In this document: positions 1 to 12,619 of the stretch, piece after piece
How positions within the stretch are numbered: the first letter of the stretch is position 1
Layout of the letters: each line of letters starts with the position of its first letter
Translations under genes and position numbers: made by a program
Virus record (IMG/VR): IMGVR_UViG_2695420600_000009
Length of the DNA stretch: 12,619 nucleotides
DNA from: a virus
Lineage: Duplodnaviria > Heunggongvirae > Uroviricota > Caudoviricetes
Direction: 5' to 3' (one strand)
The notes under the pieces: generated by a model
What the model saw: the letters and a program-made list of their open reading frames with translations, nothing else
Database searches by the model: none
Told to the model about the DNA's origin: nothing

Positions 1-86
1 ATGCCAAACTGCGATCGATTCAGATGCCATTTTGCAATCAGCGCCAGAACAGCAGCTGACAGGCCGTATTTGATTTTTGCGCTCAT
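1..86 (-). CDS. probable endolysin (lysozyme R), N-terminal 28 codons only; gene continues past the left edge of the window
   Basis: Minus-strand ATG at 86..84 followed by MSAKIKYGLSAAVLALIAKWHLNRSQFG, a Gly/Ala/Leu-rich signal-anchor-like N-terminus. It lies directly after holin and DUF826 genes, as in the Qin-type lysis cassette essQ-ydfR-rrrQ. Absent from the ORF track because fewer than 60 codons are visible. Confidence 0.4.
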   Translation of the reverse strand, partial: MSAKIKYGLSAAVLALIAKWHLNRSQFG

Positions 87-141
87 GGATATTTATCAGG
101 ATGCTACCAATGAAAGATACTGGAAAGCCAACTGCAAAAAG

Positions 142-456
142 CTAACAACCCGTAATCGAGTTATCAGAACTGTTAATTTTTATGGTATACCGCGCCTCTG
201 AACAGGGGCGCGTTTCTGGCAACAGCTCGTCCCCTTCACATAACCCGGCAGCAACATCCAAGAAGACCTGTCTGATGCTCCTTCTGGCTGCTGCCTCATA
301 AAACTCCAGCGCGGCACCTTCAACACGGTCCAGCGAGATGTCCAGGTCAAAAATTTCACCGTCAAAGCGTTTTTTGTCCCGTAACGCTAAAGTTACCGTA
401 ACTTTATTCTCAAAATTGCGGATCCCTTTCACAATCAGTTCATAGTTTTGAGTCAT
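142..456 (-). CDS. DUF826 / YdfR-like small prophage protein
   Basis: 104-aa ORF. The N-terminal two thirds (MTQNYELIVKGIRNFENKVTVTLALRDKKRFDGEIFDLDISLDRVEGAALEFYEAAARRS) match my recollection of the YdfR/DUF826 family that sits between holin and lysozyme in Qin-like prophages. The SD (GGGGAGAG) lies in the last codons of the holin gene. The C-terminal third is not recognisable and contains a strong hairpin. Confidence 0.6.
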   Translation of the reverse strand: MTQNYELIVKGIRNFENKVTVTLALRDKKRFDGEIFDLDISLDRVEGAALEFYEAAARRSIRQVFLDVAAGLCEGDELLPETRPCSEARYTIKINSSDNSITGC

Positions 457-460
457 TGAA

Positions 461-676
461 TTACTCTCCCCGTGCAGCCTTACGACGGTCCTCTCTGATT
501 TTGAAATACAGGTTAGTCAGATATGTCAGCAGCCCAAACAGCAGACTCCCCAGCACGCCTATTGCCGCCCACTGAGACGGGGAAACCCTGTCCAGCAACT
601 GCAGGAACCAGTAGCCCGTTCCCACCGCTGACGTGGTGTATGACACACCTGTTGTGATTTTTTCCATCTGGTACAT
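461..676 (-). CDS. S: phage 21-type class II holin (S21-like), 71 aa with dual-start motif MYQM
   Basis: ORF track 461..754 trimmed to the internal ATG at 676. [71 protein letters not shown] closely resembles the phage 21 S holin as I recall it, including the two closely spaced Met starts, two TM segments and a charged C-terminus. SD GGGAGACGGGG directly upstream. Confidence 0.85.
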
Positions 677-711
677 ACCCCGTCTCCCGTTATCCGGAAG
701 CTGACAACAAT

Positions 712-741
712 AAAAAAAGCCACCAGTTAAGTACTGATGGC
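712..741 (-). terminator. intrinsic terminator-like hairpin between nanS-p and the holin gene
   Basis: On the minus strand GCCATCAG-TACTTAA-CTGGTGGC (8-bp stem, one mismatch) is followed by TTTTTTTATTG. Confidence 0.5.
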
Positions 742-826
742 TCTGATAACTCATGCAGGCATCTCAGACGACCCACTGACACTACCGGTGAGTTTAACGA
801 TACCTTCCATTTGGCTGGCTCACTTT

Positions 827-2680
827 TTATGATGATGCCGGTGCATTTATCTCCAGCACCAGACTTTCTATCTCAACGCCATACGCTGCATTTTTGGTAA
901 TATCCGTCAGCGTCAGCGCATTCAGCCCCAGTGTCAGACTGTCTTTTATGACCTGGAATGCCGGGCCAGCCACTCCATTCAGTTTCGGAGTAACCGTGGC
1001 ACTGCCGGCGGTGAACACCAGCTCCAGCGTCAGCCAGTCGTTACTGTAATTCCCGAACTCGCCCAACTTTGTGTTTCCTGCTTTCTTGTGATGCATCAGA
1101 TTCAGTTTGCCGTCTGTGGTCTGGGTGAAGAACGACATCAGGAACGGGTTACCAGTCCCGGTCATCGCCACGACGTCAGGTAACGCTACATCGGTATACA
1201 GATAAATTCCCAGACCGAACTGGTTGTTGGTCAGTGCGCCTGACAGTCGAAACTTACAGCTCAGTCTGCCACCCCGTGTCAGCAGGGAGACTGCGTCATC
1301 CACCGGGCGCGTCAGGGACCAGGCTTTATTGCTCTGCTTGGTGATCTTAAATACACCATCTGACAACTGAACTCCGCCATTCTTAATGCTCCAGCCCTGC
1401 GCAGCAGCGTCTCCGGCTGTCGGCAACAGGGAGATTGTGCGTATGGATGCATCTTCAGACGGCCCCGATGGCGTGTCGCCGCCGGGCGAGGGTTTGATTT
1501 CCGGTGCCTTACCACTAATGAAGGCTAAGGTGCGACCGGCTACGTTCAGAATAGCAGTTGCCATACGATCGGGAATAATGCCACGACGCGCCCATGAGCT
1601 GAAATGCGTCGGGCGATTTGATGATACCCAGTTTTTGTTCGTTCGGGATGCCGAACCGTAATAACCAGACCCGGCAATATCAGGATCTTCTGACGGGTTG
1701 TTTGTCGGTGTATTAACTCCGCTACCATCGGTCATAAAGGGAACAAAATAAATCTGCTGGGATTCTTTACCTTTATATGCACCATATACCACTTCATATT
1801 GCGTACCGTGTTCTTGTTTCCACGCGTATGTCGTGTCGCCACAAATCCAGGGGACTGATGCCGGACTTCCACCGTGACACTGCGCCGCCAGCCCGGCAAG
1901 GTCAGCACGGAACTGCTGTACCATTGCAAGAAATGCTGCTGGCTGCTGGGCGTAACTGGCATTCGTCATATCGAATTCCCCCTGCATCCAGCATATCGCC
2001 AGCAAAACGTTTTTCGGGTTTTTCTGCAATGCTGCCTTCGTGCGGAAAAGCAGATCCTGATATAACGGCTTACCCACTCCCCAGCGAGCCGAATCCTGAC
2101 TGGCCCCCGTGGACTCGCTGAATGTCCCCTCCGTGCCCTGGGTGAATGCCGAACCACCACAACAGCATGGTACCAGCAGGATCCCCGCATTATTAGGGAT
2201 ATACGGAAGCAGTTTTTTGGCAATATGTAAGCCCTGTCCGACACAGCCGTACTGCCCTTTGCTCAGGTCAGCCCGGGGATGGTTAATCGTACTCATATCC
2301 TGAACATCATGCAGACAATGGTCAGCAGGAATGATGTCGTTAAATACGCATACTTCACCACCGGGAGTCACTGTGTTACGACGGGCCAGTTGCTTAATGC
2401 GCGGATGGGGCGCATCGTATGAATCCGGAAGCGGAAGACCTTCACCGTAAGCCATGGCATTGGATTGCCCGGCCAGTACGATGACGTAGTACCACTCCGG
2501 CTCAGTTGCACCACTGACGACCACATCACCTTCTGCTGCAATCGCCTGCATCAGGGTATAAGGGGTTATGGCCACCGGACTACCAAACGGCTGCCAGCCC
2601 TCCTTCAGTTTTTGTGTCAGTCGTTTCGCAAGGTCTGACGGCGATGCCGCCCTGACCACGTCATAGTGTTTAAATGCCAT
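827..2680 (-). CDS. nanS: prophage sialate (9-O-acetyl-N-acetylneuraminate) O-acetylesterase, NanS-p / YjhS-like, with N-terminal DUF1737-like region
   Basis: 617-aa ORF with SD GGGAGGA upstream of the ATG at 2680. The N-terminus MAFKHYDVVRAASPSDLAKRL and the GQSN motif (VLAGQSNAMAYGEG) fit the SGNH/DUF303 esterase family that EHEC lambdoid prophages carry downstream of the stx position. Recognised from memory of the family, not searched. Confidence 0.8.
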   Translation of the reverse strand: MAFKHYDVVRAASPSDLAKRLTQKLKEGWQPFGSPVAITPYTLMQAIAAEGDVVVSGATEPEWYYVIVLAGQSNAMAYGEGLPLPDSYDAPHPRIKQLARRNTVTPGGEVCVFNDIIPADHCLHDVQDMSTINHPRADLSKGQYGCVGQGLHIAKKLLPYIPNNAGILLVPCCCGGSAFTQGTEGTFSESTGASQDSARWGVGKPLYQDLLFRTKAALQKNPKNVLLAICWMQGEFDMTNASYAQQPAAFLAMVQQFRADLAGLAAQCHGGSPASVPWICGDTTYAWKQEHGTQYEVVYGAYKGKESQQIYFVPFMTDGSGVNTPTNNPSEDPDIAGSGYYGSASRTNKNWVSSNRPTHFSSWARRGIIPDRMATAILNVAGRTLAFISGKAPEIKPSPGGDTPSGPSEDASIRTISLLPTAGDAAAQGWSIKNGGVQLSDGVFKITKQSNKAWSLTRPVDDAVSLLTRGGRLSCKFRLSGALTNNQFGLGIYLYTDVALPDVVAMTGTGNPFLMSFFTQTTDGKLNLMHHKKAGNTKLGEFGNYSNDWLTLELVFTAGSATVTPKLNGVAGPAFQVIKDSLTLGLNALTLTDITKNAAYGVEIESLVLEINAPASS

Positions 2681-2873
2681 GAATCCTCCCGGCCGGGATA
2701 ATATTGTGAGTAAAATAAGGAGCGGGCTGAAGTCCGGAAGTTACAGGACAATGGCAGAAGAGAGACGACAGCCCGCAATTCGAAAAAGACCGCGCAGTTG
2801 CGCAGAGTGATTACTATGGGGTATTATTCGCCAGCTGAAATATTACTTCACGTTTTATTGTTTATTCCTTGCC

Positions 2874-2902
2874 GCCCGCGTCTCCCAGCGCGGGCTTTTT
2901 TT
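2874..2902 (+). terminator. plus-strand intrinsic terminator-like hairpin inside repeat A (second copy at 4700..4728)
   Basis: GCCCGCG-TCTCCCAG-CGCGGGC followed by TTTTTTT on the plus strand. Confidence 0.5.
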
Positions 2903-2910
2903 GCCCACAA

Positions 2911-2931
2911 GAAAACCCCTCCGGAGAGGGG
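2911..2931 (-). terminator. minus-strand terminator-like hairpin T1 in repeat A (copy at 4737..4757; diverged sub-repeat version at 3397..3418)
   Basis: Minus strand CCCCTC-TCCG-GAGGGG followed by TTTTCTTG. Confidence 0.45.
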
Positions 2932-3179
2932 CTAAAGCCGCGTATCTGTATCATCATGCACATGGTGCCGGGTGCCTCCCGGTGAGTTCAGCCCGGTGCC
3001 ACTAAACCCGCGTCATTCTCGTTTTGATAATCAGAGATTATACCGTCACCAGTCGCCCCTCCGCTCAGGGGGATTCACCATGCGAAATTTTTTTAACAAA
3101 TGCCCAGTCTGACAGGCAACTGTCAACTTACTGAATTGTGAGCAACATAGCATTTAACGGGGAACCTGTTTTCTGCAGT

Positions 3180-3206
3180 AAAAAGGCCCACCGGAGCGGA
3201 TGGGCC
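3180..3206 (-). terminator. minus-strand terminator-like hairpin T2 in repeat A (copy at 5006..5032)
   Basis: Minus strand GGCCCA-TCCGCTCCGG-TGGGCC followed by TTTTTACTG. Confidence 0.45.
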
Positions 3207-3811
3207 TGGAAGGATAGCGGTCATGTGATGCCGGTTTCCCGGTAACTCAGCACCGGTATCTGAGTCAACGTTTTCTCTACTGGGTCATTTCCGATACGCC
3301 CTGCCTGCTGACAGGCTTTCATCACATCTGAAAATATAGCACCCTGACTGATACTGTAGTACCTAAGGTTCCAGAAACTGTGATGTATCCGGCACAGAAA
3401 AGCCCCTCCGGAGAGGGCTGGAGAGTGGCGCTATGTGCCATTGCATGATGCCGGGTGCCTCCCGGTGAATTCAGTACCAGCACCTGAATCCGCGATTATC
3501 CCATATACCTACTCGCTGATTGCCCCTCCGCACAGGGGGATTCACCATGCCAGTTTCTTTTAACAAACTCCCCGCAAACCAGACAACAGTCAACCGCCTG
3601 AATTGTGAAGTATTTAAAAATTTCTCCCGCTAACTGATACCCGGCTAACAGTCTGGCGTTTTCTTTTTCAGCAACGGGAAAGCAACAACCACCACACCCG
3701 CCACCAGCACACCGTCAGCCAGCACTGACATTATCCGGCTGCTGCAATGCCATTCACAAAAACAGTAAGCAATCACTTTTTACCGTAACAGGTGATAATC
3801 CAGATATGTAT

Positions 3812-4138
3812 CTACCCCAGATGAGTAATCCGAAGTTCATCCATACCACAGGTCCTGGCTATTCTGTTGTACTCCTGAACAAGAGCAAATAATTCTGAAT
3901 TAGCAACCATGAACTCATCGCAAACCCTCTGTATAGCATCACTATTCAGAATAATAACGTCTCTTCCCGAAAGACGATCAGGAGTACAGAACAAAACTGT
4001 CAAACGGCTGAAGGCCTTTGCTCGTGCTGCATTGACTATATCAATACGCTGCCTAAGGATGAAACACCCCGACGCCTCATCAATATTCACTCTACCCACA
4101 CCATATGAATGATAAATATTTAATGCTGAAAAAACCAT
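3812..4138 (-). CDS. hypothetical protein in AT-rich cargo segment (108 aa from first ATG; ORF track extends to a TTG at 4165)
   Basis: A 354-nt open frame in clearly AT-rich DNA, where stop codons are frequent, argues for real coding. It is on the late-transcribed strand. No convincing SD and no family I can recognise. An antisense 67-aa ORF (3909..4112) overlaps it. Confidence 0.35.
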   Translation of the reverse strand: MVFSALNIYHSYGVGRVNIDEASGCFILRQRIDIVNAARAKAFSRLTVLFCTPDRLSGRDVIILNSDAIQRVCDEFMVANSELFALVQEYNRIARTCGMDELRITHLG

Positions 4139-4275
4139 TAGACCGTATAACAAACACTCAATCAATACTTAACAGAACTTTTATTTTTGACAAACATAAA
4201 ATATTTTCAACAATATCCTGAGCCAGGTATATTTCAGTATAAGGCTCTGCCGGAAGGAATCTGGAAGAATGAATA

Positions 4276-4352
4276 TGGCGCGCTGTACTGGATTCGAACC
4301 AGTGACCGATTGCTTAGAAGGCAATTGCTCTGTCCGGCTGAGCTAACAACGC
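4276..4352 (-). tRNA. tRNA-Arg (anticodon TCT), cluster 1
   Basis: Reverse complement GCGTTGTTAGCTCAGCCGGACAGAGCAATTGCCTTCTAAGCAATCGGTCACTGGTTCGAATCCAGTACAGCGCGCCA folds as a 77-nt cloverleaf with anticodon loop CTTCTAA, T-loop TTCGAAT and encoded CCA. One G-U pair in the acceptor stem, where cluster 2 has A-U. Confidence 0.85.
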
Positions 4353-4365
4353 TGAATACCGATAA

Positions 4366-4445
4366 TGGACCGCCATCGGGGACCCGCCCCCGCACCAACA
4401 ACCCTGTTATCATGTCGTCTGCTCTTCCTGATAAGCTAATGGCGG
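4366..4445 (-). pseudogene. degenerate tRNA-like sequence (disrupted counterpart of tRNA-Arg TCG at 5572..5648)
   Basis: Acceptor stem, D-arm, 3' T-stem half and CCA match the cluster-2 tRNA. The anticodon arm, variable loop and 5' T-stem are replaced by AGACGACATGATAACAGGGTTGTTGGTGCGGGGGCGGGT, which does not form a cloverleaf. Confidence 0.6.
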
Positions 4446-4452
4446 TTTGTGA

Positions 4453-4528
4453 TGGTGGCCCTTGCTGGATTTGAACCAGCGACCTGGCGATTATGAGTCG
4501 CTCGCTCTCACCACTGAGCTAAAGGGCC
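4453..4528 (-). tRNA. tRNA with anticodon CAT (Ile2/lysidine-type or Met; ileZ-like), cluster 1
   Basis: Reverse complement GGCCCTTTAGCTCAGTGGTGAGAGCGAGCGACTCATAATCGCCAGGTCGCTGGTTCAAATCCAGCAAGGGCCACCA; 76-nt cloverleaf with anticodon loop CTCATAA. Stx-type phages carry ileZ-argN-argO at this position. Confidence 0.85.
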
Positions 4529-4567
4529 GGGAGCAGAATAATAACGGTCCGTAATTAATTCCGCAAT

Positions 4568-4681
4568 AAAAAACCCGCTCGGCGGCGGGTTGTAGAAACT
4601 CTTCTAACGTCAGGCATAAAACGCCCATAGTTATGACGAATTTACCACAGATTCCGGAAAAATCAACCTAGTTACCTTTTT
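4568..4681 (-). repeat. repeat B copy 1: duplicated Q 3' tail plus terminator module (remnant; second copy 7299..7413 is attached to the intact Q gene)
   Basis: About 114 bp identical, bar one or two bases, to 7299..7413. It encodes the last ~17 codons of Q (KVTRLIFPESVVNSS stop) followed by the terminator hairpin at 4568..4591, with no upstream Q coding sequence. An N at 4682 marks the junction with repeat A copy 2. Confidence 0.8.
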
Positions 4682-4682
4682 N

Positions 4683-5450
4683 ATTGTTTATTCCTTGCCG
4701 CCCGCGTCTCCCAGCGCGGGCTTTTTTTGCCCACAAGAAAACCCCTCCGGAGAGGGGCTAAAGCCGCGTATCTGTATCATCATGCACATGGTGCCGGGTG
4801 CCTCCCGGTGAGTTCAGCCCGGTGCCACTAAACCCGCGTCATTCTCGTTTTGATAATCAGAGATTATACCGTCACCAGTCGCCCCTCCGCTCAGGGGGAT
4901 TCACCATGCGAAATTTTTTTAACAAATGCCCAGTCTGACAGGCAACTGTCAACTTACTGAATTGTGAGCAACATAGCATTTAACGGGGAACCTGTTTTCT
5001 GCAGTAAAAAGGCCCACCGGAGCGGATGGGCCTGGAAGGATAGCGGTCATGTGATGCCGGTTTCCCGGTAACTCAGCACCGGTATCTGAGTCAACGTTTT
5101 CTCTACTGGGTCATTTCCGATACGCCCTGCCTGCTGACAGGCTTTCATCACATCTGAAAATATAGCACCCTGACTGATACTGTAGTACCTAAGGTTCCAG
5201 AAACTGTGATGTATCCGGCACAGAAAAGCCCCTCCGGAGAGGGCTGGAGAGTGGCGCTATGTGCCATTGCATGATGCCGGGTGCCTCCCGGTGAATTCAG
5301 TACCAGCACCTGAATCCGCGATTATCCCATATACCTACTCGCTGATTGCCCCTCCGCACAGGGGGATTCACCATGCCAGTTTCTTTTAACAAACTCCCCG
5401 CAAAACAGACAACTGTCAACCGTCTGAATTGTGAGACATTTAAAAAAAAG
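4683..5450. repeat. repeat A copy 2 (see 2853..3620)
   Basis: Near-identical to copy 1 over ~770 bp. ORF-track entries 5297..5530 and 5346..5552 in this region run into the tRNA genes and are rejected. Confidence 0.9.
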
Positions 5451-5481
5451 GCCCGCAAAAGCGAGCCAGGGAAAATAAGTG

Positions 5482-5558
5482 TGGCGCGTTGTACTGGATT
5501 CGAACCAGTGACCGATTGCTTAGAAGGCAATTGCTCTGTCCGGCTGAGCTAACAACGC
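5482..5558 (-). tRNA. tRNA-Arg (anticodon TCT), cluster 2
   Basis: Same 77-nt sequence as 4276..4352 except an A-U instead of G-U pair in the acceptor stem. Confidence 0.9.
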
Positions 5559-5571
5559 ATGATGCAGATAA

Positions 5572-5648
5572 TGGACCGCCATCGGGGACTTGAACCCCGC
5601 GCAGCCAGCTTCGAAGGCTGGCGCTCTTTCCTGATGAGCTAATGGCGG
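5572..5648 (-). tRNA. tRNA-Arg (anticodon TCG by my reading of the loop CTTCGAA), cluster 2
   Basis: Reverse complement CCGCCATTAGCTCATCAGGAAAGAGCGCCAGCCTTCGAAGCTGGCTGCGCGGGGTTCAAGTCCCCGATGGCGGTCCA; 7-bp acceptor stem, D-stem GCTC/GAGC, anticodon stem CCAGC/GCTGG, T-loop TTCAAGT, CCA end. Confidence 0.75.
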
Positions 5649-5655
5649 TATGTGA

Positions 5656-5731
5656 TGGTGGCCCTTGCTGGATTTGAACCAGCGACCTGGCGATTATGAG
5701 TCGCTCGCTCTCACCACTGAGCTAAAGGGCC
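5656..5731 (-). tRNA. tRNA with anticodon CAT (Ile2/Met; ileZ-like), cluster 2
   Basis: Identical to 4453..4528. The ~35 bp upstream of it are also conserved between the two clusters. Confidence 0.9.
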
Positions 5732-5771
5732 GGGAGCCGCATAATAACGACGCGTAATTAATTCTTCAATA

Positions 5772-6830
5772 TCATCCGTTCTGGCTGACTAAATCCTGTA
5801 CTTCCCGAACCGTCTGCTCAAAACGTTCAGTCTCCAGCTCAACGCCAATTGCACGACGCCCGAGCGCCAGTGCCGCTTTCACTGTCGAACCCAACCCCAT
5901 GAAAAAATCTGCAATCAGGTCACCCGGACGACTGCTAGCGCTGATTATCTGCTGCAGCATTTCTGCCGGTTTTTCGCACGGATGTTTCCCGGGATAGAAC
6001 TGCACCGGTTTATGCGTCCACACATCGGTATACGGCACCTGCACCGTCACGCCAAAATACCGCCGCAGATGTTTATATTCACTCAGCAGCTCCGCATACT
6101 GCCGGTTCAGTGAGGTATACGTATCCACCAGCTGGTGGTGGAGCTTTTCCAGTTCACCACGCCGATGCTTCTCTTCTGCCACCCGGGCAAACAGCGCCTG
6201 TAATTTCAGATAATCGCTTTCATTCGGCAACTGCCACTGACCGGCACTGAACCAGTGCGACACCATGTTTTTCTTTCCTGTGGCATCTGCAATCTGTTTT
6301 GCCGTTATCCCCAGGGCAGCTCGCGCATCACGAAAGTAAGAAATCAGCGGGGCCATCACATGCTGTTTCAGTGCACTGCCCTTCGCCGCATACCCGGCAT
6401 CTTTCGGACGATACGGCCCCTGATAATGTTCCGCGAACAGAATGCGCTCTGTGGCGGGGAAATACGCCCGCAGGCTTTCCTTGTTGCATCCGTTCCAGCG
6501 TCCGGACGGCTTCGCCCAGATAATATGGTTCAGCACACTGAAGCGTTCACGCATCATGATTTCGATATCAGATGCCAGGCGATGACCACAGAACAGGTAA
6601 AGACTTCCGGCAGGTTTCAGCACCCGCCAGAACTGCGCCAGACACTGGTCCAGCCACTTCAGGTAATCATCGTCGCCCTTCCACTGGTTATCCCAGCCCT
6701 CAGGCTTCACTTTAAAGTACGGCGGGTCCGTGACTATCAGGTCAACAGAATTTTCGGGTAACGACCGGATAAATTCCAGGCAGTCGGCGTTGATTAACTC
6801 ACAACTGGATATTTTTACAGTATTAAGCAT
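5772..6830 (-). CDS. DNA methyltransferase, beta-class amino-MTase (N6-adenine or N4-cytosine), orphan (no adjacent endonuclease gene)
   Basis: 352-aa ORF with catalytic motif DPPY near the N-terminus (LIVTDPPYF) and a SAM-binding FxGxG-like motif near the C-terminus (DFFMGLGST). This motif order is typical of beta-class MTases. Sits between Q and the tRNA cluster. Confidence 0.85.
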   Translation of the reverse strand: MLNTVKISSCELINADCLEFIRSLPENSVDLIVTDPPYFKVKPEGWDNQWKGDDDYLKWLDQCLAQFWRVLKPAGSLYLFCGHRLASDIEIMMRERFSVLNHIIWAKPSGRWNGCNKESLRAYFPATERILFAEHYQGPYRPKDAGYAAKGSALKQHVMAPLISYFRDARAALGITAKQIADATGKKNMVSHWFSAGQWQLPNESDYLKLQALFARVAEEKHRRGELEKLHHQLVDTYTSLNRQYAELLSEYKHLRRYFGVTVQVPYTDVWTHKPVQFYPGKHPCEKPAEMLQQIISASSRPGDLIADFFMGLGSTVKAALALGRRAIGVELETERFEQTVREVQDLVSQNG

Positions 6831-6965
6831 GGATCATTAAGCCTGTCTCTGATAGGCTCATTCTGCTTTTGCGCAAAGCAGTGGGCCTGAGGTTTGCTTG
6901 TGAACCCAACGCATGAGCAGATGGCTGGTGGGTGCCCCTAACACCCACCAGCCGCCCATTTACCA

Positions 6966-6994
6966 CAAATAAAAAAGCCTTCACTGCGGAAGGC
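6966..6994 (-). terminator. intrinsic terminator-like hairpin at the 3' end of the small winged-helix gene
   Basis: Minus strand GCCTTC-CGCAGT-GAAGGC followed by TTTTTTATTTG; the stem overlaps the stop codon at 6981..6983. Confidence 0.55.
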
Positions 6995-7178
6995 GTCTGT
7001 AACAACCGAACTGATAGTCTGCCAGACCCGCCATAACCAGCTGGGTCAGTATTAACTGGCAGCGTTCGCGTGAAAGGTAAGTATTCTGCGCTATCTCCCC
7101 GACTGTCGCCGGTTCGGTAACGCTTAATTCATTAAACACCACTCTGGCGGTTTCTGTCATATCCTGCTGTTTTAGCAT
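6981..7178 (-). CDS. small winged-helix-like DNA-binding protein (65 aa), hypothetical
   Basis: Good SD (AAGGA) 7 nt upstream of the ATG at 7178. The segment TVGEIAQNTYLSRERCQLILTQLVMAGL has the helix-turn-helix plus recognition-helix pattern of wHTH regulators. Family assignment is inference. Confidence 0.55.
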   Translation of the reverse strand: MLKQQDMTETARVVFNELSVTEPATVGEIAQNTYLSRERCQLILTQLVMAGLADYQFGCYRRLPQ

Positions 7179-7298
7179 GTCTTTTCCTTTTCCGGTTAAC
7201 GTGACACACCAATAACTCTTGTCGAAAAAGCCAGCAAGCTGAAAGACAGGTATTCACCGCCACCAGCGCGTTTACTGTACTGACGCGATTTCAGTCAT

Positions 7299-7322
7299 AA
7301 AAAACCCGCTCGGCGGCGGGTT
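7299..7322 (-). terminator. intrinsic terminator immediately downstream of Q (candidate tR')
   Basis: Minus strand CCCGC-CGCCGA-GCGGG followed by TTTTTTAT, ~40 nt after the Q stop codon. Duplicated at 4568..4591. Confidence 0.6.
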
Positions 7323-7361
7323 GTAGAAACTCTTCTAACGTCAGGCATAAAACGCCCATCG

Positions 7362-8216
7362 TTATGACGAATTTACCACAGATTCCGGAAAAATCAACCT
7401 AGTTACCTTTTTTAACTGCCGCTCAGCCCATGCTTCTTCAATATCAAACCGGGTCACCAGCGCATCATAGAATTTCTTAACTGTTTTTTCCCATGACGCG
7501 CGTGTTATCTGGTTTGTCACCTCGCATATAGCATTAAATGCCTCCGTTGATGGTAGTCTTTCATAGCCACGACCACCACAACGCTGGCAGTCTCTGATAA
7601 CAGGCATACCACGTTTTACCGACTCTTCACGATGAATGGCGACACCACGCCCACGGCAATCCTTACAGGCGGTGGAAACCTCACCCTTTCCGCCACACTC
7701 CGGACAGGCAACTTTTACCACCTCCCTGACTTTTTTCCATTCTTCCCAGTAAGACGGATACACACCTTTCGTACACTTTGCCCATACCGGCGGCTTACCA
7801 TCCGGATACTGGATCTTGTTTGTAAAAACCTCGCTTTCAATAAATTTTTTTCCGTGACAGCAGGGGCACTGTTTTTTGCTCGCCGCGCTACGGGCATAAT
7901 CTTCAAACGCATACGAAGCCATAATACGCATCACTGCCGGTTTTATTTCTGCCGGGAGTTTTCTTAACGCCGCCACGCGATCACACCGACTGAGTGCATA
8001 TTCTGTCAGCAATTCTGTTGCCCGCTCTCTGTCATTCATACTAATGCCCATTTTCCCAAGGAACGCAGAAACCCCCATCTCAGCCCGATTCTGTGTCATG
8101 CCCTGCGCGGCCATCACATCAGTGATACTCAGCGCATCTTTCGACGTTGAGGCCGATGCATCAGTCAGGCCGGGGGATTTTGGGGAGTAGTATTTCGGTA
8201 AATCTTCCAGTTTCAT
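7362..8216 (-). CDS. Q: Q-family late-gene antiterminator with four CxxCxG(xG) zinc-finger-like motifs
   Basis: 284-aa ORF in the canonical position: downstream of rusA with ATGA start/stop overlap, upstream of terminator, tRNAs and lysis genes. The N-terminal region resembles Qin-type Q (quuQ-like) proteins as I recall them. Cys motifs CPCCHGKK, CPECGGKG, CKDCRGRG, CQRCGGRG. Confidence 0.7.
   Translation of the reverse strand: MKLEDLPKYYSPKSPGLTDASASTSKDALSITDVMAAQGMTQNRAEMGVSAFLGKMGISMNDRERATELLTEYALSRCDRVAALRKLPAEIKPAVMRIMASYAFEDYARSAASKKQCPCCHGKKFIESEVFTNKIQYPDGKPPVWAKCTKGVYPSYWEEWKKVREVVKVACPECGGKGEVSTACKDCRGRGVAIHREESVKRGMPVIRDCQRCGGRGYERLPSTEAFNAICEVTNQITRASWEKTVKKFYDALVTRFDIEEAWAERQLKKVTRLIFPESVVNSS
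7370..7397 (-). promoter_or_regulatory. candidate late promoter pR' overlapping the last codons of Q
   Basis: Minus strand TTGATT (-35), 16-bp spacer, TAAATT (-10), located just upstream of the terminator at 7299..7322. Hexamer match only; no experimental support. Same motifs in repeat B copy 1 at 4639..4666. Confidence 0.3.
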
Positions 8217-8593
8217 TTTTTGACCTGCTCTTCATGCATTATGGGGTAAATCTTCACCCCCAGACGTCCACCAGATACTGGCTGACCACGAACGATATTG
8301 ATTTCATCAAACTGCTCATCGTCCATTAGCAACCCCGCATGCGTCAGCGCATCCAGCGGCGCTTTCAGAATATTGTCCAGGTCACGGCGGCGCTTATCCG
8401 GTGGTTCTGCAATAATTTTTATTGCCAACCTTCCGGACAGGCTTAATTTCAGCCGCTGCTGGCGAACAATAAGCGCCACTGCCCGGCGATAACGCTCCCC
8501 GGCTTTTGATACAAAATATGTGCTGCCACGACGACGCCAGTAAGTGTTCACCGTCGGCGGGTAAGGTAAAACAAATTCTATGCGCTCGGTCAT
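8213..8593 (-). CDS. rusA: RusA-family Holliday junction resolvase
   Basis: 126-aa ORF with the family signature region PDKRRRDLDNILKAPLDALTHAGLLMDDEQ and N-terminal LPYPPTVNTYWR. Stop overlaps the Q start (ATGA); start abuts the stop of the upstream gene. Confidence 0.85.
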   Translation of the reverse strand: MTERIEFVLPYPPTVNTYWRRRGSTYFVSKAGERYRRAVALIVRQQRLKLSLSGRLAIKIIAEPPDKRRRDLDNILKAPLDALTHAGLLMDDEQFDEINIVRGQPVSGGRLGVKIYPIMHEEQVKK

Positions 8594-9652
8594 TTATGCT
8601 TTCCACTTCAGAACACCCGAATTTCTCGCGTGCATTAAAAAACGAATCAGCAACAACAGCTGACTGCCGTGTTTCTCTTCAAAATCTTTTACTCCGGCAT
8701 GTAGTTCGTTACGGCATTTACGGCATAACGGAATAACAAACAAATCATCAGCCTTTGTTCCCATCCCTCCCAGTCCATGACCAATGATGTGATGCGGATC
8801 ATCTGCCTGATTGCCACACGTCATGCATTTCTGCGTTTTTACCCAGCGCGTGTATACAGGCATCTCTTCCCGTTGTGATTTCTGGCGCTGGAGATACTGA
8901 GCCGGTGACTCCGGATCAACGGCAATGCTGACCACCGTCTTTTCCTGTGGTGGGTTCTGTTGCTGGTGGACGTGAGGCAGTAACGCAATATTTTTTGTGC
9001 GCTGCTTCAGTATGCTGGTGGCTGTCTGCTCTCCCGGTATGATGTCGCTTTCACTGTACACAGAGCGAATTTTTTCCGCACGCAACCCCAGCGAACGACG
9101 TAATACCGCTTCCGGTAGCGCGTCCGCCACCTGATTGCGGACCGCCCACCAGGATAATTCAGCCAGAGATAATTCACGCTCCTGCGTACCGCTTATTGCG
9201 TGACCGATGACGTCAATCATCCATGCTGACAGGTTTTGATGAGCAAGTTGCTCGAGTGATTCGGATGTCTGGTCACGCAGCTGGTTGTCGCAGTGCCAGC
9301 ACAACACCATTGCGCCGGTACCATAACGGTGAATGACGGTTTCGCTGTGATGATAATCGCCGTGTGGCCACTGGCAGGATTTAATATGGCGCAACAGCCA
9401 GTCAGACAATGCACCAGCACCACCAGCAGCACGAATCACCCGTGCGTTACTGAAAAACGGCAGCAATGTTTTGTCTTCCACCAGCGGCTGGCGAGCGGCA
9501 GGAACGACCCCGGACGGCAGATTACGCATGCTTTTTGGTTCCGGCTCCACCAGTATTCTGCCGTTATGGAATGCTGACATTGATTCACGGCCTGGCTTAA
9601 CGATAACCAGACCGAGTTCCGGTACCAGAACAGGTCGAAGTAATACCCGCAC
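8594..9652 (-). CDS. DUF968 / YdfU-like prophage protein with C-terminal HNH-like Cys/His cluster
   Basis: 352-aa ORF. GTG start at 9652 is preceded by GGAGG with 4-nt spacing; an alternative ATG lies at 9580. C-terminal CMTCGNQADDPHHIIGH...CRKCRNELH resembles an HNH/zinc-finger nuclease motif. DUF968 assignment is from gene position and size by analogy with Qin ydfU. Confidence 0.55.
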   Translation of the reverse strand: MRVLLRPVLVPELGLVIVKPGRESMSAFHNGRILVEPEPKSMRNLPSGVVPAARQPLVEDKTLLPFFSNARVIRAAGGAGALSDWLLRHIKSCQWPHGDYHHSETVIHRYGTGAMVLCWHCDNQLRDQTSESLEQLAHQNLSAWMIDVIGHAISGTQERELSLAELSWWAVRNQVADALPEAVLRRSLGLRAEKIRSVYSESDIIPGEQTATSILKQRTKNIALLPHVHQQQNPPQEKTVVSIAVDPESPAQYLQRQKSQREEMPVYTRWVKTQKCMTCGNQADDPHHIIGHGLGGMGTKADDLFVIPLCRKCRNELHAGVKDFEEKHGSQLLLLIRFLMHARNSGVLKWKA

Positions 9653-9653
9653 A

Positions 9654-9932
9654 TTACCTCCAGATCCGTTGCTGGAATGTGCGGGACGGACGCGTTGGCC
9701 GTTCGGAGTAAGGGAGCCTGACGGAGATTATCCAGTGACGGTAGTCGAGGCTAAGGGCTTTTTTAACCTCGCATCCGCGCCTGCGGTAACACTGAATGAG
9801 CCATTCGGCCTGTTCTTCAGTGCATGGGGGATGCTGGTACCAATCAGATTTAAATGCGTGAGAGCGCCGCCCGTGCCTGCTGGCAAAGACGGCTGAATTA
9901 TCAGAATTGTGTAGTCTGGAATTTTGCGCCAT
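9654..9932 (-). CDS. hypothetical prophage protein (92 aa)
   Basis: ATG at 9932 with SD GGAGAAAG. The same RBS-plus-start context is duplicated at 10628. No family recognised. Confidence 0.45.
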   Translation of the reverse strand: MAQNSRLHNSDNSAVFASRHGRRSHAFKSDWYQHPPCTEEQAEWLIQCYRRRGCEVKKALSLDYRHWIISVRLPYSERPTRPSRTFQQRIWR

Positions 9933-9998
9933 CGGCTTTCTCCGGTGGCACAGTGTTACTCAACAGGGGTTCAGCCCTGCGCTGAATTGTAGATGAAT

Positions 9999-10259
9999 TC
10001 ACTCATCTTCAAAAGCAGAAAAACCAGCCTTAATCCCAGCTTCTTTCAGAGACGGCAACGATGTGACAAATTCATTTGCACGCGAAATAAAACCATCCGT
10101 CACAAGCCCATCCACAAAATGAATTAACGCAGCTCCACTCTTCCTTTGTTGAGACTGTAAACATTTAATACGGCAGTGGCTGACAATAGCGCCATTCTCA
10201 ACGCGCACAGTATAGAGGCCATCTTCACTAAAAATTTCACGTAATTCTTCGATTTTCAT
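9999..10259 (-). CDS. hypothetical protein, paralog 1 of a tandemly duplicated gene (86 aa from ATG; track shows a TTG one codon upstream)
   Basis: MKIEELREIFSEDGLYTVRVENGAIVSHCRIKCLQSQQRKSGA is ~85% identical over the first ~75 residues to the ORF at 10667..10954. SD GGAAGGA. Family not recognised. Confidence 0.6.
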   Translation of the reverse strand: MKIEELREIFSEDGLYTVRVENGAIVSHCRIKCLQSQQRKSGAALIHFVDGLVTDGFISRANEFVTSLPSLKEAGIKAGFSAFEDE

Positions 10260-10343
10260 CAACAGAATCCTTCCAGATAAATAGCACTCCCCTGTTCGGG
10301 GTCCATCCCTCTTCTCCCTGCGCGCTACTTAAGTGAGTCGATT

Positions 10344-10374
10344 NNNNNNNNNNNNNNNNNNNNNNNNNNNNNNN
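10344..10374. other. assembly gap (31 N)
   Basis: Run of N in the sequence. It interrupts the gene starting at 10628 and the upstream region of paralog 1. Confidence 1.
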
Positions 10375-10628
10375 CACAGGTAATCAACGAAACCGGACAC
10401 CAGTTTTCGTTCGCGAGGCGTGATCGCCCCACCGACCGGAGTCCAGTAATCGAAACCCAGTTGCAGGAGTTTGAAAAAACGCTTGTGGAATGCGTAGTTA
10501 CACACACGCTTAAAGTCTGCGTGTATCCACTCACCTATTTTGATTTGATGCAGAAAATCGCAACTCTCCGGCGTCGCCGGGAGAAGTAATCCGGAAGAGG
10601 TTTGTTTGACCAGTTGTATATGTGCCAT
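10375..10628 (-). CDS. hypothetical prophage protein, 3' end lost in the gap
   Basis: ATG at 10628 in the same duplicated RBS context as 9932; MAHIQLVKQTSSGLLLPATPESCDFLHQIKIGEWIHADFKRVCNYAFHKRFFKLLQLGFDYWTPVGGAITPRERKLVSGFVDYL, then N. The track ORF 10329..10670 reads through the Ns. Confidence 0.45.
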
Positions 10629-10666
10629 CGGCTTTCTCCGGTGGCACGGTGTTACACAGCAGGAGT

Positions 10667-10954
10667 TCAATCCTGCTCAAGATTGTAGATGAGTTTATTC
10701 TTCAGCAAAAGCAGAAAACCAGCCTTAAAACCAATCTCTTTCAAAACCCGTAATGATGTGACAAATTCGTCCTCACGCAAAATAAAACCGTCCGTCAGAA
10801 GTCCATTACAAAAATAAAATAACACAGCACCGCTCTTCCTTTGTTGAGATTGCAAACATCTAATGCGGCAATGGCTGACAATCGCTCCATTCTCAACGCG
10901 CACAGCATAGAGGCCATTTTCACTAAAAATTTCACGCAATTCTTCGATTTTCAT
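10667..10954 (-). CDS. hypothetical protein, paralog 2 of the tandemly duplicated gene (95 aa)
   Basis: ATG at 10954 with SD GGAAGGA. Upstream on the minus strand is TTGATT-16 bp-TAGAAT, a plausible sigma-70 promoter. The C-terminus diverges from paralog 1 after KAGF. Confidence 0.6.
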   Translation of the reverse strand: MKIEELREIFSENGLYAVRVENGAIVSHCRIRCLQSQQRKSGAVLFYFCNGLLTDGFILREDEFVTSLRVLKEIGFKAGFLLLLKNKLIYNLEQD

Positions 10955-11077
10955 CTTCAGAATCCTTCCAGATAAATAGCTCTCCCCTGTTCGGGGTCCA
11001 TCCCTCTTCTCCCTGCGCGCTACTTAAGTGAGTCGATTCTATCTGCGAAGGTGCGCGAATCAAATTCACCGGAAATA

Positions 11078-11126
11078 AACAACAAAAAACCCGCCGAAAC
11101 GCTGAGAGATCACAGCGATGGGCGGG
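11078..11126 (-). terminator. terminator-like stem-loop after the truncated hok copy
   Basis: Minus strand CCCGCC ... GGCGGG stem enclosing an inner CGCTG/CAGCG stem, followed by TTTTTTGTTGTTTATTT. Confidence 0.45.
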
Positions 11127-11203
11127 TTAAGTGCGGGTGCGTTGAGGATGCCTGACACATCAGAGGTGGGCGGGGATGGGATCAGCTCCCCGCCCGGTCA
11201 CTC

Positions 11204-11303
11204 TTACTTCCTGGATTCGTAGTCTACGAAGACAGCGACCTCCGTCTGGCCGGTTCGGATTCGTACCTCACAGAGGTCTTTCCTCGTTACCAGTGCCGTC
11301 ACT
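11204..11303 (-). pseudogene. truncated hok copy (3' ~33 codons plus 3' UTR), tandem to the intact gene
   Basis: Minus strand reads ...TRKDLCEVRIRTGQTEVAVFVDYESRK stop, homologous to the C-terminal half of the hok ORF at 11421..11576. The copy begins at an N (11304) directly after the intact gene's terminator. The 3' UTR (11127..11203) is homologous to 11353..11420. Confidence 0.7.
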
Positions 11304-11319
11304 NAACTTCAAACGCGTT

Positions 11320-11351
11320 GAAAATAAAAACAAAAACCCGCCGAAGCGGGT
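11320..11351 (-). terminator. intrinsic terminator of the hok transcript
   Basis: Minus strand CCCGC-TTCGG-GCGGG followed by TTTTTGTTTTTATTTTC, ~70-100 nt downstream of the hok stop. Confidence 0.6.
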
Positions 11352-11420
11352 TAAGTGTGGGTGCATTGAGGATGCCTGACCCATCAGAGGTGGCGAGGGA
11401 TTTCTCCCCCGCCTGGTCTC

Positions 11421-11576
11421 TTACTCCTCAGGTTCGTAAGCTGTGAAGACAGCGACCTCCGTCTGGCCGGTTCGAATTCGTACCTCGCAGAGGTCTTTCC
11501 TCGTTACCAGTGCCGTCACTATGACGGTTAAACAGATGACGATCAGGGCGATTAACATCGCCTTTTGCTGCTTCAT
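11421..11576 (-). CDS. hokD: Hok/Gef-family type I toxin (51 aa), HokD/RelF-like
   Basis: MKQQKAMLIALIVICLTVIVTALVTRKDLCEVRIRTGQTEVAVFTAYEPEE matches the HokD (RelF) sequence as I recall it. SD GGAGAAGCAGG upstream. The track ORF (11421..11633) also contains an in-frame upstream ATG with its own SD (mok-like leader). No relBE genes precede it here. Confidence 0.9.
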   Translation of the reverse strand: MKQQKAMLIALIVICLTVIVTALVTRKDLCEVRIRTGQTEVAVFTAYEPEE

Positions 11577-11867
11577 AGCCTGCTTCTCCTTGCCTTTCGG
11601 CACGTAAGAGGCTAACCTAGATTTGCCGTTCATAGATTGAGCCTCAGATTAATGTTAAGCGTCTTGCCGGACGCGTAATGTTAACTGGGGCTTTTCTCTA
11701 TCTGCCTTTTGGTGTTCATGCCTGAGACAGATAGCCTCAAGCACCCGCTGCAATTCTACTTAACTCTCCTTTTCCCGCAAACCGTTTTTATCCCCAGCGG
11801 CAAATCGAATACACCACCAGCGCCACCGCCATCGCAATTCCTACCGTTGTTAATGCTTCAGGCCAGG

Positions 11868-12212
11868 TCATCGTAAAATATCCTCCACGCTTATCAGTCC
11901 GTTCCGCTCCAGATAACTCATCGCCTTATCCGGTAATTTGCAGTCTGGCTTCGCTTTTCTCAGTTGCCAGGTTAACTGCTTTACCAGCATGGTTAACTCA
12001 TCGACCAGACGCTGATATCCCACTGGTTTGTATTCATGCAATTTACCGGCTGGCTCTGCTGCCAGCGATACCAGTGCGATTTCCAGAACAGCAATATCCA
12101 TCTTATATGTGCGGATGATGTCATGGTCGATTGTGCCCGGTATGCACAGTCTCTGTGCTTCAATAGTCTCCTCTGCGTGAGCTATTAACTGCTCTCTGGT
12201 AAAAGTCGTCAT
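11868..12212 (-). CDS. hypothetical protein (114 aa)
   Basis: Start overlaps the stop of the upstream 55-aa gene (ATGA). Shares the motif IAL-x-SL-x-AEP with that gene. Family not recognised. Confidence 0.5.
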
Positions 12213-12376
12213 GCCGTAGCCCCTTCTTGATATTTTTCAAACCAGAACACAACCGGCTCTGCTTCCAGCGATGCCAGCGCAATCCGTGCCAGTTCCATTT
12301 GTTCACCACGGGTAAGCCCGTTTTCAAGCGGGTTTTTAATGAACAATTCAATACGTTCTTTGGTAATAGTGGTCAT
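12209..12376 (-). CDS. hypothetical small protein (55 aa), not in the ORF track (<60 aa)
   Basis: Strong SD AAGGAG 7 nt upstream of the ATG at 12376. Translation [55 protein letters not shown]. Stop overlaps the next start. Confidence 0.5.
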
Positions 12377-12386
12377 GTGTTACTCC

Positions 12387-12617
12387 TTAACCCGCAGTGC
12401 TTTCAACTGATGAGGGGAACAAAATCTTTTCATCAAACCCTGCATTCATATCATGAACAGCAACACACCAATCCATCGACGAACGATTATCAAGAGCCTC
12501 CATGATTTCATCCATGCGGCGTAGGTCATACAGGTAAATGCTTTTATCGCCAATGGTGTAAAAGCCAATTTTTTTCGGTGATGGATGAGGTGTACTGGCA
12601 ATAGCGGACACTACCAT
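12387..12617 (-). CDS. hypothetical protein (76 aa if the ATG at 12617 is the true start; may be partial)
   Basis: ORF begins 2 nt from the right edge of the window, so the real N-terminus cannot be judged. Its stop TAA is embedded in the SD of the next gene (TAAGGAG). Confidence 0.4.
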   Translation of the reverse strand: MVVSAIASTPHPSPKKIGFYTIGDKSIYLYDLRRMDEIMEALDNRSSMDWCVAVHDMNAGFDEKILFPSSVESTAG

Positions 12618-12619
12618 TT

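Follow-up and report, generated by a model that had tools for sequence, protein, structure and literature searches.

Tandem ileZ-argN-argO-type tRNA clusters in a prophage scaffold of Escherichia coli: a probable assembly artefact joining two known alleles, one with an argN remnant

Two tRNA clusters and their known relatives

Two nearly identical clusters of tRNA genes stand about one kilobase apart in a single stretch of phage DNA, and one of them has lost its middle gene. Is this a true duplication with a decaying copy, or were the two clusters brought together in some other way? The window that we analysed is the whole 12,619-nt stretch of the Caudoviricetes record IMGVR_UViG_2695420600_000009 (IMG/VR), which the initial annotation, made from the letters of the sequence, had described as carrying a duplicated ileZ-argN-argO-like cluster with a decayed middle tRNA in one copy, a state ascribed either to ongoing decay of a redundant copy or to recombination between two different prophage alleles. 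Our results make it very probable that the apparent duplication is an assembly artefact, in which allelic prophage contigs were strung together across an N character. Both cluster alleles, including the one with the argN remnant, are already known, and the locus is most probably ordinary biology combined with an assembly artefact.

ARAGORN called exactly five tRNA genes in the window, all on the minus strand, and the same five were matched by the Rfam tRNA model (Table 1); the segment at 4366-4445 in the middle of cluster 1 was missed, as had been anticipated. Cluster 1 (4276-4528) and cluster 2 (5482-5731) can be aligned with 87.7% identity over about 308 nt (E=1.8e-98), and the divergent centre of this alignment falls in the middle element. 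The outer tRNA genes are indeed nearly the same in both clusters: the CAT tRNAs give identical Rfam alignments, and the TCT tRNAs show a single difference at acceptor-stem position 69, which makes a G-U pair in cluster 1 and an A-U pair in cluster 2, just as had been read from the sequence. The anticodon order CAT, TCG, TCT on one strand is found in cluster 2 by ARAGORN and Rfam, while cluster 1 lacks this trio since its middle gene is not callable. The initial reading that the middle tRNA, an Arg tRNA with the anticodon TCG, is intact only in cluster 2 is thus borne out. It should be mentioned that the Ile identity of the CAT tRNA is taken from RefSeq annotation only, and that the names argN and ileZ for the genes of cluster 2 follow their annotation by name in Stx2a phages.

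Table 1. Features of the window relevant to the two tRNA clusters (positions are those of the whole 12,619-nt stretch)
Feature	Position	Strand	Basis or remark
nanS-p-type SASA carbohydrate esterase	827..2680	-	Pfam SASA/DUF1737/DUF6645; RefSeq annotation
STnc100 sRNA pair, then esterase gene	2853..3620	-	Rfam; repeat comparison
argO, tRNA-Arg (TCT), allele A	4276..4352	-	ARAGORN, Rfam; G-U at acceptor pair 4-69, a haplotype marker
Apparent argN pseudogene	4366..4445	-	Uncalled by ARAGORN/Rfam; allele alignment
ileZ-type tRNA (CAT), allele A	4453..4528	-	ARAGORN, Rfam; sequence identical to 5656-5731
Copy of Q 3' end and downstream leader, with tR'-like terminator (4591-4572)	4566..4681	-	99.1% to 7297-7412; ends at the N
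Single N, probable scaffold join of allele A piece (1-4681) and allele B piece (4683-10343)	4682..4682		Junction found nowhere else
STnc100 sRNA pair of allele B	4678..5446	-	Starts at the N; 99.1% copy of 2853-3620
argO, tRNA-Arg (TCT), allele B	5482..5558	-	ARAGORN, Rfam; A-U at acceptor pair 4-69
argN, intact tRNA-Arg (TCG), allele B	5572..5648	-	ARAGORN; Rfam 58 bits; cloverleaf MFE z = -2.85
ileZ-type tRNA (CAT; tRNA-Ile in RefSeq), allele B	5656..5731	-	ARAGORN; Rfam 72.5 bits
N6/N4 DNA methylase, path B only, between Q and cluster 2	5772..6830	-	Pfam PF01555, E=8e-42; RefSeq
Q 3' end and leader, with tR'-like terminator (7322-7303)	7297..7412	-	Natural place after Q
Q antitermination protein	7362..8216	-	Pfam PF03589, E=2e-53
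31 Ns, 929-nt piece of a third prophage, N; probable second inserted contig	10344..11304		FDAARGOS_944 match; L088

Cluster 2 corresponds to the classical ileZ-argN-argO cluster known from Stx2 phages. Its identity to 279 phage records, most of which are Stx2-converting phages and several of which annotate ileZ, argN and argO, is 93-97% over 302 nt. It has the same anticodons in the same order as the ileZ-argN-argO clusters of Stx2/lambdoid phages (AP012536, AP012537, AP012533; 933W-type late region), and, like the Stx2-type cluster, it comes after Q and before nanS-p and the lysis genes. This location between Q, with its pR'/tR' region, and the lysis module is seen from the Pfam assignment of Q, from the tR'-like terminators, which lie 3' of both copies of the Q leader, and from the gene order in closed genomes. 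On the other hand, the window differs from Stx2 phages in the lack of stx genes and in what comes after the cluster, namely two STnc100 sRNA genes and the esterase gene. The DNA methylase gene between Q and the tRNA genes is found likewise in UTI89-type prophages and in phiP27, and in closed genomes such as UTI89 the ileZ-argN-argO cluster comes after the DNA methylase gene exactly as in the window. A promoter-like sequence (TTGAAG-17-TATTAT) is located just upstream of ileZ of cluster 2, and a terminator follows argO. In addition, four STnc100 matches and two hok/sok-like segments were detected in the window.

Cluster 1 corresponds to the allele with two tRNA genes known from phages mEp460 and phiP27 and is 99.7% and 91.9% identical to them, respectively, over 306 nt. 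Only ileZ and argO are annotated in phiP27 (Stx2e), with about 100 nt between them, and this spacer has the same replaced anticodon arm as cluster 1. The G at position 69 of argO, a linked feature of the two-tRNA haplotype, is also present in cluster 1. Moreover, positions 205-4677 of the window are colinear, at 99.1% identity, with a prophage of the closed strain 2D, in which the order is Q, tRNA-Ile, a gap, tRNA-Arg, DUF3927, esterase and holin. Among the papers searched for ileZ/argN/argO, we found nothing specific apart from the statement that the number of tRNA genes is two (Met, Arg) in Stx2e phages and three in Stx2a/c/d phages (PMC7366253).

Order of the contigs around the single N

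N characters occur at three sites of the window, namely 4682 (one), 10344-10374 (31) and 11304 (one), and every one of them coincides exactly with the end of an internal repeat. On the left of 4682 we find the 3' end of a Q antiterminator gene with its leader, and on the right the distal end of the STnc100 pair. Near the other two sites, the repeat 9925-10343 is about 86% identical to 10621-11038, and the repeat 11122-11303 is about 86% identical to 11346-11520.

Relatives of the window include contigs that contain no N. One of them (L088; IMG/VR, 30.6 kb) equals positions 1-3620 and 4678-10334 of the window, about 29 nt, and positions 11305-12619, at 99.75-99.92% identity. It represents one prophage with one tRNA cluster, cluster 2, and does not contain window positions 3621-4681 and 10375-11303. 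Two further N-free contigs (L023 and L118) match window positions 12619-11305, 10334-10172 and 9921-7297, including the same Q gene at 99.77%, and here the Q region runs directly into positions 4681-3398, that is, into cluster 1 and DUF3927. The comparison of L088 with L023 and L118 demonstrates that path A (cluster 1) and path B (methylase and cluster 2) are alternative fillings between the same flanks. A draft contig (L063), the pieces of which are 99.7-99.96% identical to the window, has both clusters in the opposite order, with cluster 1 upstream, and single Ns at its joins (2232 and 6087); in this contig, cluster 2 and the STnc100 pair run unbroken into the esterase gene. It is evident from the opposite order and the Ns of L063 that the two assemblies contradict each other. 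Among the 219 loci that we fetched, L063 was the only one with two clusters on one contig.

The junction at 4682 was searched for in two ways. The query 4530-4840 gave no contiguous match by megablast in 5,426 complete E. coli genomes. Four records that covered this query were rejected as instances, because they have the natural order esterase-STnc100-tRNAs-Q and no junction. A junction pattern that allowed 0-6 arbitrary nucleotides at the N occurred in none of the three collections of contigs (genome, viral and metagenome); without the gap, and with N at that one position, the pattern matched the literal N in the window. In all 12 other loci (12/12), whichever argN allele they carry, the STnc100 block is followed at its distal end by the upstream sequence of the esterase gene. 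Path A was found in 1,180 complete genomes and path B in 1,830 (each with at least 80% query coverage), and both occur singly. In IMG genome 2728369393 the two alleles are co-resident, each on a long contig of its own (L015 and L020).

The second inserted piece tells a similar story. Positions 10375-11303 are 99.9% identical to the closed genome FDAARGOS_944, where they lie within a different prophage of a third kind, which has DUF1367, DUF1364 and DUF1133 genes and a four-tRNA cluster, and the sequences that flank this piece in the window do not continue in FDAARGOS_944. We also considered that the Ns might be masks of the dataset over real sequence. This was rejected, because at three of three N sites the N separates sequences that continue differently in N-free contigs or closed genomes.

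We propose that the window comes from a draft assembly, as a scaffold in which N characters join contigs of at least three co-resident lambdoid prophages. Two of these contigs carry alternative alleles of one module, which separates the gene for the late antiterminator Q from the STnc100 pair, the nanS-p esterase gene and the lysis genes. Path B consists of Q, the tR' leader, a small ORF, the DNA methylase gene and ileZ(CAT)-argN(TCG)-argO(TCT), and path A of Q, the tR' leader, ileZ, the argN pseudogene and argO, followed by DUF3927. Because the flanks are near-identical on both paths, the forked graph may have been linearised by the assembler or scaffolder as flank, path B, N, path A and flank, and a fork linearised in this way would mimic a tandem duplication of 1.8 kb. 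The same signs, that is, Ns at repeat ends, overlapping allelic contigs and a different order in a sister assembly, are seen in repeat-induced scaffolding errors of multi-prophage E. coli drafts, and the window has nothing distinctive in comparison with these known errors.

For the initial annotation, this means that the duplicated cluster itself is not supported: the placement depends solely on the join at the N, it is contradicted by all four relatives described above (L088, L023, L118 and L063), and its junction is absent from the complete E. coli genomes and the contig collections searched. The idea of two different prophage alleles survives in so far as paths A and B are alternatives, and their placement side by side most likely arose by scaffolding across the N. 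The annotation had further asked whether the divergent segment at 4385-4425 might be mis-assembled. This does not apply to the segment itself; the artefact would lie in the order of the contigs.

A real tandem arrangement would require illegitimate, microhomology-mediated recombination of the distal end of one prophage's STnc100 block with the Q 3' end of another prophage, the N being an ambiguous base call. Some features are in line with such an event, namely a TTTTA microhomology at the 4682 junction, the position of the N inside a T run, where a homopolymer might blur the call, and the presence of two clusters on one contig also in L063. Nevertheless, we regard it as improbable. The junction, instead of being a sequenced contiguous stretch, is an N, and the sister assembly L063 has the reverse order with Ns at its own joins; the junction is missing from the 5,426 complete genomes and the three contig collections; the N-free relatives have one cluster; and the other two N sites follow the same pattern, with one piece provably derived from a third prophage.

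The argN remnant and its alleles

What, then, is the element in the middle of cluster 1? The remnant is 80 nt long, lies between the outer tRNA genes and has the acceptor stem, D arm, T stem and CCA in common with argN of cluster 2. Apart from one C>T change, the 21 nt at the 5' end (acceptor and D arm) are the same in both, as are the 18 nt at the 3' end, and the centres show no relation. In place of the anticodon arm and variable region, the remnant has a new arm with a 6-bp stem and an 11-nt loop, which is located in the spacer of about 100 nt between ileZ and argO of cluster 1 (AGACGAC...GTTGTTGG). One base in this loop is private to the window, which reads ACATG where other alleles read ACACG. 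A search with this private base yielded a single fragment of 884 nt (L131), which matches window positions 3545-4428 at 100% and makes IMG genome 2690316276 the likely source. The T loop is GCGGGT (6 nt) in the remnant versus TTCAAGT in argN of cluster 2. Retention of the acceptor and D arms and replacement of the anticodon arm had been recognized correctly in the initial annotation; the 5' strand of the T stem had also been taken as replaced, but this strand (CGGGG) is kept and it is the T loop that is changed.

The Rfam tRNA model had no match at 4366-4445 even at E<=10, and ARAGORN called no tRNA there. With regard to the tRNA family RF00005, the segment does not reach the gathering threshold and has neither a 7-nt anticodon loop nor a canonical T loop. 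As ARAGORN and Rfam (E<=10) were both negative, we rejected the possibility that it is a valid tRNA of unusual form or some other known RNA. The minimum free energy fold of the remnant is cloverleaf-like (7-bp acceptor stem, 4-bp D stem, 6-bp stem and 5-bp T stem), and it is no better than the folds of shuffled sequences (z = -0.97 versus -2.85 for argN).

To survey the alleles, a flank-anchored scan that is unbiased for the middle sequence was combined with the loci collected earlier, which gave 66 distinct middle alleles. Sixteen of them, from 104 loci, have the replaced arm, and phiP27 (L129) has the same arm. ARAGORN called a tRNA in none of these 16 alleles and in 47 of the 50 canonical ones, nearly all as tRNA-Arg(tcg). 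Mixed states also exist: in phiP27 the replaced arm is combined with a canonical T loop (TTCGAGT), and in another locus (L174) the canonical arm is combined with the T loop GGCGGGT. These mixed states indicate that the allele of the window has two separable lesions, which were mixed by recombination. Within the replaced-arm family, three loop positions vary, a poly-G tract at the T loop shows slippage from G2 to G14, one allele has an acceptor mismatch (L134) and two have T-stem deletions (L218 and L002). No compensatory changes were found within this family. The stems of the remnant vary only by breaking, and thus covariation neither supports nor opposes a structure beyond drift.

The G at position 69 of argO was found in 60 of the 62 replaced-arm loci and in 2 of the 97 canonical loci. 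The G-U pair tracks the replaced arm, and therefore it is a haplotype marker and no sign of fresh decay. The spacer with the remnant is present in 1,837 of the 5,426 complete E. coli genomes (at least 80% query coverage), or about one third; it is at least 99% identical in 910 records, and RefSeq annotates no gene there. Over a 121-nt query, a single base separates the remnant of the window from its counterparts in more than 900 complete genomes.

Judging from these comparisons of sequences, the segment 4366-4445 looks like a fixed, drifting pseudogene, an old and common state of the allele, and of the three phage tRNA genes argN seems to be the dispensable one. Loss of argN is presumably tolerated, in line with what is established for lambdoid and Stx phages. 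It is probable that argN of path A was inactivated long ago by the replacement of the anticodon arm and the loss of T54/T55 in the T loop, and that the pseudogene now drifts and has spread with its haplotype by phage recombination. The ongoing decay of a redundant copy, one of the two origins suggested at first, is not compatible with a remnant that is old and fixed, is shared with more than 900 genomes as well as with mEp460 and phiP27, and is accompanied by a haplotype-linked G-U pair.

It is also conceivable that the remnant is a conserved tRNA-like RNA that does not decode, and that serves as a processing spacer or scaffold for ileZ and argO, as a decoy for anticodon or tRNA nucleases or as a small regulatory RNA. 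RNase P and 3' processing might then excise it from the late transcript by means of the intact acceptor/T-stem helix and the CCA, and selection would maintain it. We consider this improbable. The cloverleaf-like fold is kept and the allele is very widespread, and the new stem GACGAC/GTTGTT is invariant in 13 of 13 distinct element sequences, with substitutions mostly in the loop. However, such invariance is expected without selection in a recently spread haplotype, the fold is no better than shuffled sequences, and, apart from the lack of compensatory changes, several alleles have a broken acceptor or T stem or a poly-G of up to 14. As an observation in itself, an invariant stem with a variable loop also fits a weak structural constraint.

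Finally, a recent duplication of the cluster within this genome followed by ongoing decay of the redundant copy, to which the near-identity of the outer tRNAs could point, has hardly any probability left and is already refuted by the population data, as the supposedly decayed copy is only one base in 121 nt from the alleles of more than 900 genomes and 99.7% identical to mEp460, a methylase block of 1.5 kb and a DUF3927 block of 640 nt distinguish the regions between and around the tRNAs, and the G-U change is linked to the haplotype.

Predicted expression of the tRNA genes and reading of draft scaffolds

From what is established for lambdoid and Stx phages, the tRNA genes of both paths would belong to the late operon that depends on antitermination by Q, and the promoter-like site just upstream of ileZ may give rise to further transcripts. 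The CAT tRNA presumably reads AUA after lysidine modification, and we assume that the TCT tRNA reads AGA/AGG and the TCG tRNA CGA/CGG. The phage tRNAs may accordingly supply decoders for the rare codons AUA, AGA/AGG and CGA/CGG. With regard to the last of these tRNAs, argN (tRNA-Arg-UCG) appears to be inactivated by separable lesions in a haplotype that is carried by about one third of the complete E. coli genomes, and further damaged argN alleles occur elsewhere.

Draft scaffolds of E. coli with multiple prophages can set allelic contigs in tandem, and this generates false duplications and surplus copies of tRNA and sRNA genes. Gene dosage of tRNAs or sRNAs, or decay after duplication, would be wrong if read from such scaffolds. 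The four STnc100 matches and the two hok/sok-like segments of the present window are probably a product of allelic contigs placed in tandem.

Damaged and variant argN alleles

Loss of argN, the middle tRNA of the cluster, seems to have been repeated. A second family of damaged alleles occupies this position in the related loci L200, L207, L219, L132, L189, L173, L214 and L215, where the 5' acceptor strand CCGCCAT faces the 3' strand ATGGCAA with two resulting C-A mismatches, the T loop reads CCCGGGT or CTCGGGT, and ARAGORN made no tRNA call for some of the alleles. In the argN remnant, the poly-G at the former T loop is a homopolymer prone to slippage, having grown to 9, 12 and 14 G in the loci L188, L216 and L217.

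The argN allele of another locus, L146, has the anticodon TCT, not TCG, and is canonical in all else; two tRNA-Arg(UCU) genes would thus be present in its cluster.

Candidate tRNA promoter

About 35 nt 5' of the CAT tRNA are kept in both clusters, 5741-5769 (-) of the intact cluster 2 corresponding to 4538-4566 (-) of cluster 1, which bears the remnant. In cluster 2 this stretch includes the promoter-like TTGAAG-17-TATTAT, so the phage tRNAs may have a promoter of their own in addition to late read-through. The first hexamer is TTGCGG in cluster 1 versus TTGAAG in cluster 2.

Other features of the window

Small RNAs and an open reading frame in the window
Feature	Position	Strand	Remark
STnc100 sRNA	2903-3112	-	Rfam, 161 bits
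STnc100 sRNA	3390-3579	-	Rfam, 122.5 bits
117-aa ORF, TTG start	3812-4165	-	between DUF3927 and cluster 1
STnc100 sRNA	4729-4938	-	Rfam, 161 bits
STnc100 sRNA	5216-5405	-	Rfam, 123.6 bits
sok antitoxin RNA	11571-11746	-	112 bits; hokD-like sequence adjoins

The STnc100 paralogues, about 80% identical to one another, form a tandem pair that is present twice in the window only because of the scaffold join at N 4682, and the true dosage is two per prophage. Similarly, the apparent local duplication of 11122-11303 and 11346-11520 (86-89% identity), whose copies are split by the N at 11304, reflects alleles of different prophages. The ORF is probably not a gene; a Pfam search gave no match to it, and RefSeq genomes with the same DNA carry no annotation there.

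tRNA clusters in other prophages and taxa

In a third lambdoid prophage type, from the closed genome FDAARGOS_944, a DUF1133 Q-like gene is followed by four clustered tRNAs, for Ile, Arg, Thr and Gly (L220, 10314-10624). Window 4453-4545 is 94.7% identical to its Ile tRNA region.

The E. coli-type phage tRNA cluster was also found in a 'Proteobacteria bacterium' metagenome-assembled genome of non-Escherichia assignment (L124) and in one labelled 'uncultured Collinsella sp.' (L128, UQIB01000015.1), the latter probably through mis-binning or contamination.
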